DNA of 64,000 nucleotides from a phage. This document shows, piece by piece, positions 17,789 through 25,665 of this stretch. Made by a program: the position numbers and the translations under genes. The DNA lies in the NCBI GenBank assembly GCA_026188615.1, contig GCA_026188615.1_4525.1; one strand, given 5' to 3'. Positions within the stretch are counted from its first letter, which is position 1; each line of letters starts with the position of its first letter. The notes below the pieces were generated by a model. It was not told the origin of the DNA, ran no database searches, and was given only the letters and a program-made list of their open reading frames with translations.

Positions 17789-17834
17789 TCAGTTAGTTTT
17801 TTTAAATTGTACCACAATCCTTGTGGTATGTAAA

Positions 17835-18245
17835 CTACTTTTTCTTATGTTGGATATTCCAAGGCGGGTTGAACTTTTTGATAAAAAGTGGTTCTTCAAG
17901 GTCCATTGTTGCGATGGTCATTGAACCAAGTTCGTTGGTGACTGAAAGGTCAAAACATTGGCGGGCCCAGAATTCAACCTTTTTGCCTTGCATTAAGGCA
18001 TCCAAAATCATAAGTGATTTTCTTGAATCTGAAGTCTGGTCTTTTCGATTTATGGCTGTTCGATAATAGTTAATGCGTTTCTTTAAATTCTTGGTTTTAC
18101 CAATATACACAAGTTCGTCATCTATAGCAATAGCGTATATGACATTTTTCTTATTAGGGACATCAACTGTTTTAATTGTTGCATCTTCTAATAGCTCCAA
18201 TTCTGTATATTTAATAAAGGAATATTCGGCGGCAATATCTTTCAT
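17835..18245 (-). CDS. denA: endonuclease II (GIY-YIG family)
   Basis: 136 aa = T4 EndoII; GIY-YIG-like YAIAIDDELVYIGKT motif; position between rnlA and nrdB. Confidence 0.8.
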   Translation of the reverse strand: MKDIAAEYSFIKYTELELLEDATIKTVDVPNKKNVIYAIAIDDELVYIGKTKNLKKRINYYRTAINRKDQTSDSRKSLMILDALMQGKKVEFWARQCFDLSVTNELGSMTIATMDLEEPLFIKKFNPPWNIQHKKK

Positions 18246-18253
18246 AATAAAGT

Positions 18254-18267
18254 GGGACCGAAGTCCC
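18254..18267 (-). terminator. hairpin GGGAC-UUCG-GUCCC on minus-strand transcript between nrdB and denA
   Basis: 5-bp GC stem with CGAA loop on plus strand. Confidence 0.4.
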
Positions 18268-18271
18268 GTCC

Positions 18272-18772
18272 TTAGAAATATTTTTTGTATGAATTGATTA
18301 CATTTTGGTCTACATCATTATCAATTTGTGCGACAAGATAAGAACTGATTTCAACTTCCTGAGGAGCTGCTTGAACTAAATCAGAGTTCAGATATTCACG
18401 AATCCATGGAATAGGATGACGAGTTGATACGTCTTTAAGAGGACATGGCAGACCACAACTACGCATACGAGACACGGTAAGATAATCCACAAATTCACTT
18501 AGGATTTTAACATTTAGACCTGGAAGAGCACCATCTTTAAACAAGTGTTCAGCCCATTCTTTTTCTTGAGCGTTAACTTCCATGAAAATATCAACTGCTT
18601 CTTGTTCACACTCTTGAGCAATTTTGACCCATTCATCACCGTCTTCGCCATCTTGTAAAGCACGAATAATATATTGAGTGCCCTTAAGGTGGAGCTGTTC
18701 ATCACGAGCAATGAACTTCATAATCTTGGCATTACCTTCCATGATTTCCATGTTCTTATGGAAGTTAAAGGT
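18272..18772 (-). CDS. nrdB: ribonucleotide reductase small subunit NrdB, exon 2 (5' boundary approximate)
   Basis: Translation matches recalled E. coli NrdB region MEGNAKI..IARDE.LHL.GTQ...PIPWI...SYLV.QID; interrupted from exon 1 by ~1.1 kb intron. Confidence 0.8.
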   Translation of the reverse strand, partial: TFNFHKNMEIMEGNAKIMKFIARDEQLHLKGTQYIIRALQDGEDGDEWVKIAQECEQEAVDIFMEVNAQEKEWAEHLFKDGALPGLNVKILSEFVDYLTVSRMRSCGLPCPLKDVSTRHPIPWIREYLNSDLVQAAPQEVEISSYLVAQIDNDVDQNVINSYKKYF

Positions 18773-19865
18773 ACCGTATGTTCGATTGAGCTCGCTAATT
18801 CTCAACCCGTTCTCTTATGAACTGCTGCATGTTACCATGCAGTCCAGACTATATCACAATCCCGGAGGGATTCTCCCCATTTCGAGTCGCTTGACCCTAC
18901 GTCCGAAGACTAGTCGTTGAACCTTGCTTTGCAATTGTCGCCGTGCCATCGTTTATATGTTGATGGTGATAAATCTTTCTTATCACAATATGGACAATTC
19001 AATTGAATTCTATTTGGATTTAATTTACATCTGTCATTATGTTTTAGATAAAATCCAGGACCTTTACCAATGTGACCACAGAAATCACATGTGATTTCTT
19101 TTTGTGCAGGATGGGTCCCGTTCTTAACCATTTCTAATGTTTTTGCTGATGTTCTTTTCTTATGGTCTTCTGATAAGAAATGATGTGAACCGTCATTTAC
19201 CCGTTTTGATTGAGTTTCTGACTGCATTTTACCACCGCAAAATACATGAGTACCTTCTTTTATAGCTGCAATATTGCGTTCTTTAACTTTTGCAATATGC
19301 TCAGCTTGTTGAAAATTATGTATACCTAATGCAACTCTATTTAAATTAGATTTACGCTGTATTTCACCGTCTAAAAGATGAAATGTACCATTTTCTATCT
19401 TAGATTTAATAGAGGCAATATTTTTAGCTCGTACTTCAGGGATATTAAAAATCTGGATTTCTCTAGATTTTGCGGCTTTAGAAGCTAATTCAGAAATTTC
19501 TTCAGGAGAATATTTCATTCTAAGCTTTATAGCATGACAAGCCTGGTAATCTTTTTGAGCTAAATGTATATCATAATGTTCCTGTATAGAAAGGCACATC
19601 AAATTATCTAAATCATTATTTTCACGGTTACCGTCTTTATGATGGATTTCGTATGTTCTTCCATCAGAATCTTTAGGTATAGGTCCGTTAGCATCTATCC
19701 AAATTTTTCTATAGTTCAATTGTGCATCCTCTTAAAAGTATAATCATATTTATATTATACTAATTAAAGGTGCAAGCAAAACCTTGGCTGCTAGTTTTCC
19801 TATAAAGGACTTTCCAGCAATTAAAGGAGTTTTCGATAAACGTTACCGTTTAAAGGCGCATTTTA
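18773..19865 (-). mobile_element. group I self-splicing intron in nrdB carrying HNH homing endonuclease ORF (boundaries approximate)
   Basis: NrdB reading frame split into two ORFs; in-frame stop immediately after exon 1 (YVSFA-stop); intervening 269-aa HNH ORF; matches known T-even nrdB intron architecture. Confidence 0.75.
18910..19719 (-). CDS. I-TevIII: intron-encoded HNH homing endonuclease, I-TevIII-like (full length)
   Basis: 269 aa; HNH motif YEIHHKDGNRENNDLDNL near N-terminus, C-terminal Cys/His zinc-finger-like repeats. Confidence 0.8.
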   Translation of the reverse strand: MNYRKIWIDANGPIPKDSDGRTYEIHHKDGNRENNDLDNLMCLSIQEHYDIHLAQKDYQACHAIKLRMKYSPEEISELASKAAKSREIQIFNIPEVRAKNIASIKSKIENGTFHLLDGEIQRKSNLNRVALGIHNFQQAEHIAKVKERNIAAIKEGTHVFCGGKMQSETQSKRVNDGSHHFLSEDHKKRTSAKTLEMVKNGTHPAQKEITCDFCGHIGKGPGFYLKHNDRCKLNPNRIQLNCPYCDKKDLSPSTYKRWHGDNCKARFND

Positions 19866-20540
19866 CGCAAAAGATACATAAAAACGAATAGCTTCTAAGG
19901 CATTAATAACGTGCAAACAGAGGTAAAGAGACTTCATTAAAGCACGTTTAGCTTCGGCTTCTTGTTTAATAGCTCGGTTTAAACGAAAGTCGGCATCAGG
20001 AGATTCTTTAGCTAGTTCTACAAATTCCTTAGCGTTTTCCCAATAACGAGCTTTAACCAGAACATCATCATAATATCGTCCGATAGATTCGGCACGCTTC
20101 ATAATAGCTTCATCTAATACAATCTCATCAAACACCTTCGATGGATCTGTATAAAGATTTCGCATAATATGAGTATATGAACGAGAGTGAATAGTTTCAC
20201 TGAAAGTCCATGTAGCAACCCATGTATCTAATGAAGGGTCTGAAAGCAATGACATAAGTACCGCAGATGGTGCTCTACCTTGGATAGAATCTAATAATGA
20301 TTGATACTTAAGGTTGTTGGTAAAGATGTCCTGTTGGAACTGTGGAAGCTTATTAAACTGGGCCGAATCCAACATCAAGTTTACTTCCTCGGGACGCCAG
20401 AAAAAACTTAGCTGCCGCTCAATGAGTTCTTCAAAAACTTTATGACGCTGAATATCATAACGTGCGAGACCAAGACCAGAACCAAAGAACATTGGTTCGT
20501 TCAAAACATCGACTTGTTGTGTATTAAAAACTGTACTCAT
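19866..20540 (-). CDS. nrdB: ribonucleotide reductase small subunit NrdB, exon 1
   Basis: 225 aa N-terminal part ending ...EAIRFYVSFA as in recalled NrdB just before the intron. Confidence 0.8.
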
Positions 20541-21235
20541 TTAGAATCCTTAAATTTACATTTATCATAATGCCATCTTAGAGCATTGCCTTTATTAACT
20601 TTCTTGCCACAATGCGGACAAGGTGGATATTCAGTACTTTGCTTAGTTCTCAAAGAAATCAAATCACGAGTTTCTTTAGTATGAGGAACATCTCTTGTTG
20701 GAGATATTGTACCATACATAGGATTAAGCACACCTAGTTTAGCTTTTGCTATATTCTTTTTGGCTTCATCTGATTTAGGTTTTCTCATCTTTTTCTTAGT
20801 TTCTTCACTTTTAGCCCTTCCTTTGGTTGCCGCCGATATTTTGTGCTTGGTTTCTTCTGTTAAATGTAGGCCTGTTTTCGCTTTTGAAATTTTCAGTCTT
20901 GTTTCTTCAGAAATGACCATACCTTTGCGAAATTGTGAATTTAACTTCTTTGCATGGGCATATATTTTAGAATGAACTTTATAATGTCGTTTCTTGGTTC
21001 CTTTCATATTGCACATCATGAAAAATGCGAATATAACAGATTTTATCGGATAAATCTTTGATAAAATAGCATGTGCTATAAAATGCTCTCTAGCTGTTAA
21101 TTCAACTAAATTTTCTTTATCATCAGAACCTCCTAAACATCTAGGAACTATATGATGAGTCTCTTTATATTCGGATAAAGGTTCCCGAGCCTTAGCCCGG
21201 GAAATTAGGTCGTTATAGATTTTTTGATAATTCAT
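20537..21235 (-). CDS. mobE: free-standing HNH homing endonuclease, MobE-like
   Basis: 232 aa; HNH motif ETHHIVPRCLGGSDDKENLVELTAREH; repeated basic NUMOD-like K.SEETK..IS.A units; sits between nrdA and nrdB as mobE does in T4. Confidence 0.7.
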   Translation of the reverse strand: MNYQKIYNDLISRAKAREPLSEYKETHHIVPRCLGGSDDKENLVELTAREHFIAHAILSKIYPIKSVIFAFFMMCNMKGTKKRHYKVHSKIYAHAKKLNSQFRKGMVISEETRLKISKAKTGLHLTEETKHKISAATKGRAKSEETKKKMRKPKSDEAKKNIAKAKLGVLNPMYGTISPTRDVPHTKETRDLISLRTKQSTEYPPCPHCGKKVNKGNALRWHYDKCKFKDSK

Positions 21236-23490
21236 TACAATTTACAAGCAGAACAATCTTCAGCTTTAGGTGTTTCTAATTCATAGTCGTCTGTACCAGA
21301 CCCATCACGAGTGTTATGATAGTAGAGGTTTTTTCCGCCAAAGTACCAGAAGTAAAGCAGATCGTCAAGCATTACAGACATTGGCACTTTACCTTTCTCA
21401 AATACTGCAGGGTCATAGTAAGTATTAGCAGAAGCAGATTGGCACACCCATTTCAACATGATAGCAACTTGGGTCAAATAAGGTTTATTACCTTTCTTAG
21501 CAAGTTTCCACGCGTAGTCGTAAAGACTCATGTTATGTTCTATATTAGGAACAACCTGTCGGAAGTTGCCTTCTTTAGATTCTTTAATACTTACTGGACC
21601 GCGTGGGGGCTCAATCCCGTTTGTAGAGTTCGATACTTGACTGCTTGACTCACAAGGCATGAGTGCAGACAACGTTGAGTTACGAATTCCATGTTCTTTG
21701 AGTTCAGCTCGAAGTTCTTCCCAGTCACAGACGTAGTTCGGGGCCGCGATTTGGTCAATCTTTTTATTGTACCAGTCGATAGGTAATTCGCCTCTAGACC
21801 ATTTAGTGTCTGAATAATACTCGCAAGGTCCTTTTTCTTTGGCGAGTTTGATTGAAGCTTTGATAAGGCCATATTGCAATCTCTCAAACAATTCATGAGT
21901 CAAATCGTTAGCATCTTCATATGAAGCAAAGTTAGAAGCTAACCATGCAGCATAGTTCGTCACACCAACGCCGAGGTTTCGACGCTTTTTAGCTTTTAAA
22001 GCTTCTGGAACAGGATAATCTTGATAGTCTAACAGGTTATCAAGTGCACGTACTTGTACTTCAGCAAGTTCATTAATTTTATCTTGGTCTTGCCAATCAA
22101 ATTTATCTAATACAAAAGCAGATAATGTGCATAAACCAATTTCAGCGTCAGGACCATTCACATCATTAGTTGGAATAGCGATTTCACAACATAAGTTACT
22201 CTGACGAATTGGAGCTTTTTCACGAATAAACGGAGTGTAGTTATTCGTGTTATCAACAAACTGTGGATAAATTCGAGCAGTACCAGAACGTTCAGTCATG
22301 AACAATTCAAAGAGTTCTAGTGCTTTGATTCTTTTCTTTCTGATTGTTGGGTCTTTTTCAGCTTTCTCATAAAGCTCACGGAATTTATCTTGATCTTCAA
22401 AGAACGAGTAGTATAGTTCGCCTGACATTTCGTGAGGGCTAAATAAAGTAATATAATCATTTTTACCAAGGCGTTCCATCATAAGGTCATTAATCTGAAT
22501 TCCGTAGTCCATATGTCGAATACGGTTTTCATCCACGCCTTTGTTATTTTTCAGAACTAATAGGTTCTCTACTTCTAAGTGCCACATCGGATAATACGCT
22601 GTAGCAGCACCACCACGAATACCACCTTGAGAACAAGATTTTACTGCAGTTTGGAAATGTTTCCAGAATGGAATAACACCTGTATGTCGAACTTCACCCA
22701 TACCGATCTTAGAACCTTCTGCACGAAGCATGCCAACGTTGATACCGATACCAGCTCGTTTAGAAATATATTCAATAATTGATGCTGAAGTTTTGTTAAT
22801 AGATTTTAACGAATCACCGGCTTCAATAACTACACAACTAGAGAACTGGCGAGTCGGAGTACGAGCACCTGCCATAATTGGGGTTGGCAATGAAACTTGA
22901 TGAGTAGAAACAGCATCATAAAAACGAATAATATGTTTCAAACGGTCATGAGTTTCGTCTTGATGTAAGGCCATACCAATAGCCATGATAGCAAACTGGG
23001 GAGTTTCATAAATCTTACCAGTTGTTTTATCTTTAACTAGGTATTTTTCTTTAAGCTGCATAGCACCAGCATAAGTCAGGTCAAAGTCTCGTTCATGTTT
23101 AATCTGTGAATCGAGATAAATGATTTCTTCTGCTGAATATTGAGACAACAGCTCAGGGTCATATTTGCCTTCATTAACACAGTAAGAAATATGGTCGATA
23201 AAAGCAGGCGGTTCAAACTGCCCATATACATCTTTACGAAGTGCAAACATTAGCCCTTTGGCGGCGACATACTGATAATCGGGTTCTTCGACAGAAATCA
23301 AGTTAGCTGCAACTTTAATACAAATCTTCTGGATATCTTTGGTGCTCATCCCATCGTCAAGATGGGTCTTAATTTCTTCGTACAATTCATATGGGTCGAT
23401 TTGTGTTCCTTCACATTGCCAAGTTAATACTTGAATAATTTTCTGTGCATCAAAATTTTGGGATACCCCACTGCTCTTAGTTACTTGCAT
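21235..23490 (-). CDS. nrdA: ribonucleotide reductase large subunit
   Basis: 751 aa (T4 NrdA 754); class I RNR large-subunit size and position next to nrdB. Confidence 0.9.
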   Translation of the reverse strand: MQVTKSSGVSQNFDAQKIIQVLTWQCEGTQIDPYELYEEIKTHLDDGMSTKDIQKICIKVAANLISVEEPDYQYVAAKGLMFALRKDVYGQFEPPAFIDHISYCVNEGKYDPELLSQYSAEEIIYLDSQIKHERDFDLTYAGAMQLKEKYLVKDKTTGKIYETPQFAIMAIGMALHQDETHDRLKHIIRFYDAVSTHQVSLPTPIMAGARTPTRQFSSCVVIEAGDSLKSINKTSASIIEYISKRAGIGINVGMLRAEGSKIGMGEVRHTGVIPFWKHFQTAVKSCSQGGIRGGAATAYYPMWHLEVENLLVLKNNKGVDENRIRHMDYGIQINDLMMERLGKNDYITLFSPHEMSGELYYSFFEDQDKFRELYEKAEKDPTIRKKRIKALELFELFMTERSGTARIYPQFVDNTNNYTPFIREKAPIRQSNLCCEIAIPTNDVNGPDAEIGLCTLSAFVLDKFDWQDQDKINELAEVQVRALDNLLDYQDYPVPEALKAKKRRNLGVGVTNYAAWLASNFASYEDANDLTHELFERLQYGLIKASIKLAKEKGPCEYYSDTKWSRGELPIDWYNKKIDQIAAPNYVCDWEELRAELKEHGIRNSTLSALMPCESSSQVSNSTNGIEPPRGPVSIKESKEGNFRQVVPNIEHNMSLYDYAWKLAKKGNKPYLTQVAIMLKWVCQSASANTYYDPAVFEKGKVPMSVMLDDLLYFWYFGGKNLYYHNTRDGSGTDDYELETPKAEDCSACKL

Positions 23491-23833: not shown

Positions 23834-24694
23834 TTATACCGCCATTTTAGCTTTGATAGCTGGATGTGATTCGTAATTTTTAAGAACGAAATCAGAATGT
23901 GTCATCGTTCCAGTAACCCAGTCCATTTGGATTTTTGTAGGCCAATTCTCAAAATTACTAGGCCAATTAATTTCAAGAGAACACAACTCTTTAGGTTCAC
24001 GACGAAGAACTTCTTTGCATTGTTCTACATGATTGCTGTAGATATGCGTGTTGCCGCCTGAGAACACTAAATCACCCGGGATAAGGTTACACATCTTCGC
24101 TACAATATGCGTCAAGGCGGCGTACGAGGCGATGTTGAACGGCAAGCCCAAGAAAACATCTACACTGCGTTGATACCATTGTAAATCAAGATGTCCATTA
24201 CGCACATTAAATTGATAGAACATATGACAAGGAGGAAGAGCCATTTGGTCAATTTCGGCAGGGTTCCATGCAGAAACTATTTGACGACGGTCAGTTGGTA
24301 ATTTTTTAATACGGTTGATTGTTTCAACCAATTGGTCCACACCACCAAAATCTCGCCATTGCTTACCATAAATAGGACCAAGTTCGCCACTATGATAACC
24401 AAGGTCTTTTGCCTGATTTTCATAGTTGTCGTCCCAAATAGTTTTGCCTTCAATTAGACTACCATGAGTACGAATACGCAAATCATTAACATTGGTAGAA
24501 CCAGACATGAACCACAGTAGTTCGGCAATACAAGCTTTCCATGCTAATTTCTTAGTTGTTACTGCAGGGAATCCTTTAGTCAGGTCCCAACGTAATTTAG
24601 TTCCGAACAGGGCAATTGTTCCTGTGCCTGTACGGTCGTCTGTTTCATAGCCGTTTTCAAGGATATTTTTAATTAAATCTTGATATTGTTTCAT
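23834..24694 (-). CDS. td: thymidylate synthase, intronless
   Basis: 286 aa contiguous ORF = T4 Td mature length; conserved TS motifs (LPPCH, DLQWYQRS); no intron present. Confidence 0.95.
   Translation of the reverse strand: MKQYQDLIKNILENGYETDDRTGTGTIALFGTKLRWDLTKGFPAVTTKKLAWKACIAELLWFMSGSTNVNDLRIRTHGSLIEGKTIWDDNYENQAKDLGYHSGELGPIYGKQWRDFGGVDQLVETINRIKKLPTDRRQIVSAWNPAEIDQMALPPCHMFYQFNVRNGHLDLQWYQRSVDVFLGLPFNIASYAALTHIVAKMCNLIPGDLVFSGGNTHIYSNHVEQCKEVLRREPKELCSLEINWPSNFENWPTKIQMDWVTGTMTHSDFVLKNYESHPAIKAKMAV

Positions 24695-24707: not shown

Positions 24708-25665
<958 letters not shown>

Follow-up and report, generated by a model that had tools for sequence, protein, structure and literature searches.

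A T-even-type nrdB group I intron with a full-length I-TevIII-like endonuclease gene in a Mosigvirus-like phage genome

In the window that we analyzed, a 64,000-nucleotide (64-kb) stretch of phage DNA, the minus-strand gene nrdB is split by a 1090-nt insert at 18775-19864. We put the chances at about nine in ten that this insert is the intact form of the T-even nrdB group I intron, a self-splicing ribozyme that carries the gene for the homing endonuclease I-TevIII. From its near-identity to the introns of phages T4 and RB3, we infer that the intron splices, that its endonuclease gene is expressed late, and that the endonuclease cleaves its target and promotes homing.

Where exactly does the insert begin and end? 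A base-by-base alignment with the intronless phage JK1 located the insertion point exactly between GCGT and GTACC. Because this alignment allows no one-base move, the intron is 18775..19864; its boundary is fixed to the base, and any shift breaks the match to JK1. The sequence-only reading of this DNA had proposed 18773..19865, an interval that was right but whose ends lay 2 nt and 1 nt too wide. The gene is laid out as follows:

19865..20540, minus strand: nrdB exon 1, 676 nt, which matches intronless JK1 nrdB colinearly as far as GCGT
18775..19864, minus strand: predicted nrdB group I (IA2-type) intron, 1090 nt, with AAAAUGCGCC at its 5' end and ...CAUACG, whose last base is G, at its 3' end
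18272..18774, minus strand: nrdB exon 2, 503 nt with the stop codon counted, which begins GUACC

The N-terminal part of NrdB is encoded by a 225-aa open reading frame (ORF) at 20540..19863 on the minus strand, and the C-terminal part by an ORF with its end at 18272 on the same strand. Both the split of nrdB into two ORFs about 1.1 kb apart, with a 269-aa HNH ORF between them (18910-19719), and the in-frame stop directly after exon 1 had been noticed earlier from the sequence, and both were confirmed. The stop, T19865-A-A, ends the first NrdB ORF and spans the 5' splice site. When 19865 was joined to 18774, the product was a 1179-nt coding sequence (CDS) for a 392-aa NrdB, in which a Cys codon (T + GT) spans the exon 1/exon 2 junction; this spliced protein matched Pfam Ribonuc_red_sm from end to end. 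The predicted ligated exons read ...UUUGCGU followed, across the junction, by GUACCUUU, and the 400-nt in-silico spliced junction gave a single ungapped alignment with the intronless nrdB of many related phages.

Does the insert have the structure of a group I intron? A search of the whole 64-kb window at the Rfam gathering threshold returned no match. A permissive Rfam scan revealed the group I intron family RF00028 at 18825..19065 (36.3 bits, E 4.8e-7; threshold 50), which was the sole credible RNA match in the intron interval. The other permissive matches, to snoRNAs, the S15 leader, and HIV GSL3, had E values of 0.3-9 and were discarded as noise. The window scored below the threshold because its core is divided by a 785-nt ORF, which forced the model onto the 3' half alone. 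The T4 nrdB intron was likewise sub-threshold with RF00028, at 35.7 bits. The natural ORF-less copy from phage PD112, which is 304 nt long, scored 68.6 bits against the threshold of 50 and covered model positions 1-253. Its core differs from that of the window at a handful of positions, none of which breaks a helix.

We aligned eight sequences by structure (the window, RB3, T4, S16, HY03, PD112, SG1, and DCP80), with the ORF cut out at the ACAATTG repeat, the site used by the PD112 deletion. All of P1, P2, P3, P4, P5, P6, P6a, P6b, P7, P7.1, P7.2, P8, P9, P9.1, and P9.2 could be drawn, in the canonical P3-P9 order and with P3/P7 as a pseudoknot. Their placement in the window is as follows:

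19776..19868, minus strand: 5' ribozyme segment, with P1, P2, the 5' strand of P3, P4, P5, and the 5' strands of P6 and P6a
19868-19865 / 19859-19856, minus strand: P1
18786..18932, minus strand: 3' ribozyme segment, with P6a', P6', J6/7, P7, P7.1, P7.2, P3', P8, P7', P9, P9.1, and P9.2

In P1, the exon sequence GCGU pairs with the intron sequence GCGC; the last base of exon 1, T19865, is the U of the 5' splice site U.G pair and is matched with G19859. The 3' terminal G of the intron is G18775. The loops include a UUCG in P7.1 and a GUAA in P9. P10 amounted to at most 2 pairs, one of which is broken in DCP80, and it was left out of the drawn structure.

The 88 pairs of this structure are standard in 99.9% of the 703 pair cells of the eight sequences. 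Among these close relatives, compensatory changes were found in nine pairs (three in P2, two in P9.2, and one each in P5, P6b, P7.2, and P9), a number that neither any of the 500 shuffles nor any slid control reached. RNAalifold, run without a given structure, recovered P1, P2, P4, P5, P6, P6a, P6b, P7.1, P7.2, P9, P9.1, and P9.2; its output lacked the P3/P7 pseudoknot and P8, and the compensatory pairs were the same as in the drawn structure. P3, P4, P6, P7, and P8 showed no variation in the eight sequences and hence no covariation support. These five helices stand on the Rfam alignment, with which P3 and P8 are consistent, and on the group I consensus, and are thus compatible with the structure rather than proven. 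Taken together, the E value of the RF00028 match, the score of the PD112 copy, the placement of P1 to P9.2, and the nine compensatory pairs bear out the group I intron proposed in the sequence-only reading. The covariance-model fold suggested there left the window on its own under 50 bits; the helices were placed on the eight-sequence alignment, and the exact splice sites come from the comparison with JK1. We classify the nrdB insert as a group I (IA2-type) intron, which is predicted to be self-splicing given its near-identity to the T4 intron (597 of 598 positions shared).

The ORF within the intron has the following features:

18910..19719, minus strand: I-TevIII ORF, 269 aa, with a TTG start and a TAG stop within P7/P7.1
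19576..19710, minus strand: HNH motif, aa 4-48, with H26, H27, N39, and H48 (Pfam HNH_3, E 6e-13)
19027..19089, minus strand: zinc finger 1, CX2CX12HX3C, aa 211-231 (motif as defined in PMC1865063)
18931..18996, minus strand: zinc finger 2, CX2CX13HX3C, aa 242-263, whose final codons are shared with the 3' strand of P6a

The TTG at 19719 lies 8 nt past AAGAGG. At the other end of the ORF, roughly the final eight codons also encode P6a', P6', J6/7, and P7. The protein matches PHROG 12324, annotated as an "intron-like DNA endonuclease," over all of its residues (1-269/269, E 1.9e-193), and the family of the 97-aa T4 remnant matches its C-terminus only. It is identical to RB3 I-TevIII (CAA41802, AIT72961) at 268 of 269 residues, the sole difference being Y23 in place of the RB3 D23. 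With the HNH_3 match and the end-to-end PHROG match, this identity substantiates the full-length I-TevIII-like HNH endonuclease noticed earlier. Searches gave no meaningful NCBIfam match for I-TevIII, MobE, or the 115-aa ORF, and a PDB sequence search with I-TevIII found no chain at E <= 0.1.

In RB3 I-TevIII, alanine at any of eight residues abolished cleavage or binding (PMC1865063). All eight (H26, H27, N39, H48, C211, C214, C242, and C245) are kept in the window, as are both fingers. The dN/dS of the ORF was 0.08-0.12 relative to the HY03 and S16 copies, and the ORF is therefore under purifying selection. Near-identity to the RB3 enzyme makes it very probable that the endonuclease is active in the present phage. 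What of residue 23, which lies three residues ahead of the catalytic H26/H27? In our survey of six full-length copies, Y23 was also present in S16, HY03, JK45, and KAW3E185, and so, with the window included, in 5/5 non-RB3 copies; of the copies examined, only RB3 has D23. Two pattern scans of IMG/VR for Y or D at codon 23 matched no contig. One could suppose that the Y23 copy is the natural, fully active I-TevIII and that D23 of RB3 is an attenuated private variant, a proposal that we regard as unlikely. If true, D23 could explain why the RB3 enzyme was reported to be weak and labile and why homing was at first missed.

Comparison with known elements places the window intron closest to that of RB3, which Eddy and Gold described in 1991 as a wild form of the intron in T4 (cited in PMC1865063, PMC2988022) and whose endonuclease was later characterized by Robbins et al. 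(2007, PMC1865063). The two introns are 99.1-99.2% identical (X59078 and KM606994, in which the ORF is annotated I-TevIII), differ by 1 nt in length (1090 nt in the window versus 1091 nt in RB3), and have in common the insertion site, the ORF in an extension of P6, and the TTG start. Unlike RB3, the window has the T4 version of the P8 loop, P9, and 3' tail. Both phages carry mobE upstream of nrdB; the window gene is of the T4 type, whereas RB3 mobE has a different C-terminal half. The backbones also differ, being Mosigvirus-like in the window and Tequatrovirus in RB3. The full-length intron was found in at least 85 public phage records, each of which covers at least 80% of the window intron.

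The 598-nt T4 nrdB intron differs from the retained parts of the window intron by one substitution (18927) and one P5-loop base, and the splice sites, promoter, ribosome-binding-site hairpin, and mobE type are common to both. What T4 lacks is the following segment:

19165..19655, minus strand: 491-nt ORF segment missing from T4, between the near-repeats GAAGAACATA and GAAGACCATA

I-TevIII is thus truncated in T4, as stated in the sequence-only reading. The T4 endonuclease is dead because T4 is without these 491 nt of the ORF, and the T4 nrdB intron is mobile only with the help of MobE (PMC2790892). The other T4 introns, in td (I-TevI) and nrdD (I-TevII), are also phage IA2 group I introns with an endonuclease ORF looped from a peripheral helix, and they share the scheme of a late promoter and a sequestered ribosome-binding site (PMC2988022). 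I-TevI and I-TevII are GIY-YIG enzymes, whereas I-TevIII is an HNH enzyme. I-HmuI, from the DNA polymerase intron of phage SPO1, is likewise an HNH homing endonuclease that is encoded in an intron and binds DNA through a modular region, but it is a monomer that nicks one strand, whereas I-TevIII is a dimer that makes a double-strand break (PMC1865063).

These likenesses suggest how the element would work. In the pre-mRNA, the two ribozyme halves, which take up roughly the first 90 and the last 150 nt of the intron, would co-fold, with the I-TevIII ORF looped out from the P6 extension. With guanosine as the initiator, splicing after U19865 and G18775 would then join the exons to give the 392-aa NrdB; the T4 nrdB intron is a classic self-splicing intron (PMC1865063). 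Expression of the endonuclease is expected to depend on one hairpin:

19723..19774, minus strand: P6b hairpin, in which the Shine-Dalgarno sequence AAGAGG (19733-19728) is paired with CCUUU

In early/middle transcripts, the ribosome-binding site of I-TevIII would be paired within P6b and the gene would be silent. Late transcripts would begin at TATAAATA, a T4 late-promoter motif in the P6b loop (19754-19747), and, being without the 5' arm of the hairpin, would be translatable. Work on T4 established such a scheme, in which the ribosome-binding site is hidden in a hairpin early and a late promoter inside the hairpin permits translation (PMC2988022). In the window, P6b folded with -17.9 kcal/mol and a modest z of -2.3, and one pair in it shows a compensatory change in SG1. 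The promoter motif TATAAATA was not enriched in the 64-kb window (7 copies versus 7.5 expected by chance), and a sigma-70 scan of the DNA did not rise above shuffles. Because the motif occurs at chance frequency and the z of the hairpin is only -2.3, the regulatory reading hangs on T4 homology.

Once made, I-TevIII would act as a dimer, its HNH nuclease being N-terminal and its two zinc fingers C-terminal, and repair by recombination from an intron-bearing allele would copy the intron together with some flanking exon. The RB3 enzyme binds as a dimer via its zinc-finger domain, cleaves intronless nrdB, and drives homing at a level >40-fold above that of the T4 intron; it is also weak and labile, and the first attempt to demonstrate homing was unsuccessful (PMC1865063).

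If the intron spread by homing, a footprint might be visible in the genes around it. The minus-strand order is nrdA (23490..21235), a 232-aa HNH/NUMOD3 ORF, the 225-aa NrdB ORF, the 269-aa ORF, and the NrdB C-terminal ORF. Two features are needed here:

20537..21235, minus strand: mobE, T4-type free-standing HNH endonuclease gene, 232 aa, between nrdA and nrdB (function, PMC2790892)
18660..20100, minus strand: approximate RB3/T4-like tract, made up of the intron plus some 350 nt of exon on its two sides (60-nt identity profile)

The mobE product matches Pfam HNH and NUMOD3 as well as PHROG 655 and is colinear with T4 MobE, and the gene is 85-98% identical to the T4 copy at the nucleotide level. 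In 60-nt windows, as in the other comparisons of this profile, nrdA and denA are 98-100% identical to those of AlbertHofmann, an intronless and mobE-less Mosigvirus, but only about 65-90% identical to those of RB3 and T4. The intron itself shares 95-100% of its bases with RB3 and, over the parts that T4 retains, 98-100% with T4; together with the adjacent exon it is RB3/T4-like (97-100%). The likeness reaches into both exons, for about 240 nt in exon 1 (20100..19865; RB3-like or RB3/T4-like) and for about 110 nt in exon 2 (18774..18660; RB3/T4-like). The part of exon 1 at about 20340..20221, which lies between mobE and the intron, is still like the backbone; the intron tract thus has the look of a separate conversion centered on the I-TevIII site rather than of one long MobE tract. 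The identity mosaic resembles the textbook footprint of co-conversion, as a cut by I-TevIII predicts, and suggests separate acquisitions of mobE and the intron. The same nrdA-mobE-nrdB(intron + I-TevIII)-denA layout is found in the Mosigvirus KAW3E185 (vB_EcoM_KAW3E185, MK373782), which is 98.3% identical across 2.4 kb and about 5% divergent across the surrounding 20 kb. In its record, the nrdB exons are unannotated and the endonuclease is labelled a hypothetical protein.

Could the abrupt identity switch, from backbone-like to RB3/T4-like, instead reflect a chimeric assembly, in which reads from a T4/RB3-like phage were joined to a Mosigvirus backbone? At identities of 96-98% to the window, independent genomes cover the 2.4-kb region and its junctions, KAW3E185 along with mobE, and JK45, G2285, JM10, and others in the nrdB part; moreover, the transitions are graded, as co-conversion tracts predict. 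With independent genomes matching across the junctions, we rejected a chimera, which we consider hardly credible. We give equally little credence to a genuinely split nrdB that makes two polypeptides around an inserted free-standing HNH gene, with no splicing. Many GenBank records do annotate two NrdB CDSs, and the empty Rfam result at the gathering threshold would fit such an arrangement. However, exon 2 has neither a start codon nor a ribosome-binding site on its junction side, joining the exons re-creates a Cys codon and makes the gene exactly colinear with its intronless alleles, and the flanks of the HNH ORF fold as a covarying group I core that the self-splicing T4 intron shares bar one substitution (PMC1865063). 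The restored codon and colinearity, the covarying core, and the self-splicing T4 counterpart led us to reject a split gene without splicing.

A more serious alternative, although still an improbable one, is that the intron splices while its endonuclease is ineffective, so that the intron would spread only in trans via a MobE nick in nrdB. A T4-type mobE lies directly upstream, and the defunct T4 copy of the nrdB intron has been shown to home in trans with MobE (PMC2790892). The weakness and lability of RB3 I-TevIII and the failed first demonstration of homing (PMC1865063) point the same way, and residue 23 of the window enzyme is unlike that of the tested RB3 enzyme. Against this, the ORF is full length with every required residue present, a dN/dS of about 0.1 across lineages indicates that protein function is maintained, Y23 is found in all five of the other full-length lineages, which makes D23 of RB3 the odd one, and backbone-like sequence at 20340-20221 separates mobE from the intron tract. 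We thus retain an intron with its own working I-TevIII as the preferred reading.

Intron content is patchy among T-even-type phages, and T4 is an outlier in endonuclease load (PMC2988022). In the window, one further gene that is interrupted in T4 bears on this point:

23834..24694, minus strand: td, uninterrupted thymidylate synthase gene, 286 aa, with the whole Pfam model (1-266) covered

The gene is continuous where T4 has its td intron. The T4 td homing-site sequence had no match in the window within 3 mismatches; the best ungapped match to it was 33/42, at the expected place in td. The single 286-aa ORF with its complete thymidylate synthase model agrees with the intronless td described in the sequence-only reading. 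The conclusion drawn there, that intron content is mosaic relative to T4, also holds, with the nrdB intron present and the td intron absent.

What does the element add to our understanding of these phages? It is already known, being of the RB3-type configuration found in dozens of sequenced phages. The nrdB intron, its endonuclease, its regulation, and its patchy T-even distribution have been textbook material since 1986-2009. The discovery value is therefore small, and the element is of practical use for annotation: in many public records, and in the output of naive ORF callers, nrdB is split in two or omitted and I-TevIII is labelled hypothetical. Residual interest is limited to two points. 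The difference between Y23 and D23, the latter found in the sole enzyme studied, offers I-TevIII workers a cheap hypothesis. The mosaic profile is that of a clean natural homing co-conversion tract in the backbone of a different genus, and on a bolder reading, which we hold to be unlikely, it would document natural homing of the intron from Tequatrovirus to Mosigvirus, independent of mobE.

The backbone of the nrdB locus (window 17800-22500) is Mosigvirus-like, with nrdA and denA 98-100% identical to AlbertHofmann, an intronless Mosigvirus. Within this stretch, mobE, the nrdB group I intron and the exon sequence adjoining it are T4/RB3-like. Part of exon 1 (~20340-20221) resembles the backbone and stands between the mobE tract and the intron tract. 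Because these two tracts are separated by backbone-like sequence, our comparison suggests that mobE and the intron were gained in two separate events. In exon 2, a patch of ~240 nt (18421-18660, minus strand) reaches no more than 61-85% identity with any of RB3, T4 and AlbertHofmann, whereas its flanks are 90-100% identical to one of the three. This patch is common to phages of the KAW3E185/JK45 type and appears to derive from a third donor lineage.

The gene between nrdA and nrdB encodes a second endonuclease in addition to I-TevIII, the 269-aa protein encoded within the intron:

20537-21235, minus strand: mobE of the T4 type, a free-standing HNH/NUMOD3 endonuclease gene (232 aa) between nrdA and nrdB

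The ends of mobE overlap nrdA and nrdB by a few bases each. MobE carries a CX2CX12HX3C finger (CPHCGKKVNKGNALRWHYDKC) at its C terminus that resembles the fingers of I-TevIII. RB3 MobE has only the N-terminal ~55 aa in common with MobE of the window, and AlbertHofmann, the closest intronless backbone, lacks mobE. With mobE and I-TevIII at one locus, nrdB would thus be the target of each of two HNH elements.

Can differences be seen within I-TevIII itself? Codon 23 (19651-19653, minus strand), three residues ahead of the catalytic H26/H27, encodes Tyr in the window and in phages S16, HY03, JK45 and KAW3E185; the two RB3 records have Asp there. To our knowledge, the RB3 enzyme is the sole I-TevIII that has been characterized biochemically. 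A Pfam match to FlgM (anti-sigma-28) over aa 74-114 (19378-19500, minus strand) scored 26.2 bits against a cutoff of 25. The NCBIfam FlgM model scored far under its own cutoff. The Pfam match is most likely spurious and falls on a Lys/Ser/Ala-rich helical linker.

Downstream of exon 2, nrdB is followed by a terminator-like element:

18254-18267, minus strand: hairpin GGGACTTCGGTCCC with a T-rich tail after it, 5 nt past the nrdB stop codon

The hairpin agrees with the KAW3E185 annotation, which has a terminator at this position. Public records of the nrdB locus disagree: most give nrdB as two separate CDSs, the KAW3E185 record (MK373782) leaves nrdB wholly unannotated, the S16 record has an additional CDS nested inside I-TevIII, and I-TevIII is frequently labeled "hypothetical protein."

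The td gene is uninterrupted, with continuous sequence (…TTCTTGGGCTTGCCGTTC…; 24122-24175, minus strand) where T4 td has its intron; only 33 of 42 positions match the T4 exon junction. Another ORF lies upstream of td:

24708-25055, minus strand: 115-aa ORF that lies between frd and td and shares 11 nt with frd (25662..25045)

In T4, frd and td are direct neighbors. The ORF had no match in Pfam or NCBIfam and matched PHROG 1928 (function unknown; E value, 9e-36); its AlbertHofmann homologue is annotated "putative homing endonuclease."

Among the matches listed, the 3' core of the nrdB intron (P7.1-P9.2; 18786-18905, minus strand) shows 82-96% identity to sequences from unrelated phages across 50-110 nt. 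The examples examined fall within or next to a DNA polymerase gene of a Seunavirus, an ATPase gene of a Pseudoalteromonas phage and the nrdA gene of a Vibrio phage; further listed matches are in Pectobacterium, Klebsiella and Aeromonas phages. Most of these sites carry no annotation at the match. The matching sequences presumably belong to further IA2 introns sharing a very conserved core.

Intact copies of the nrdB intron measure 1090-1096 nt, and shortened copies measure 598 nt in T4, 420 nt in SG1, 309 nt in DCP80 (a Gaprivervirus) and 304 nt in PD112. The PD112 deletion runs exactly between the two ACAATTG repeats flanking the ORF, and that of T4 is bounded by GAAGAACATA and GAAGACCATA. 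The shortened copies form a natural series in which the ORF was lost independently, and this series illustrates the gain-decay cycle of a homing endonuclease.
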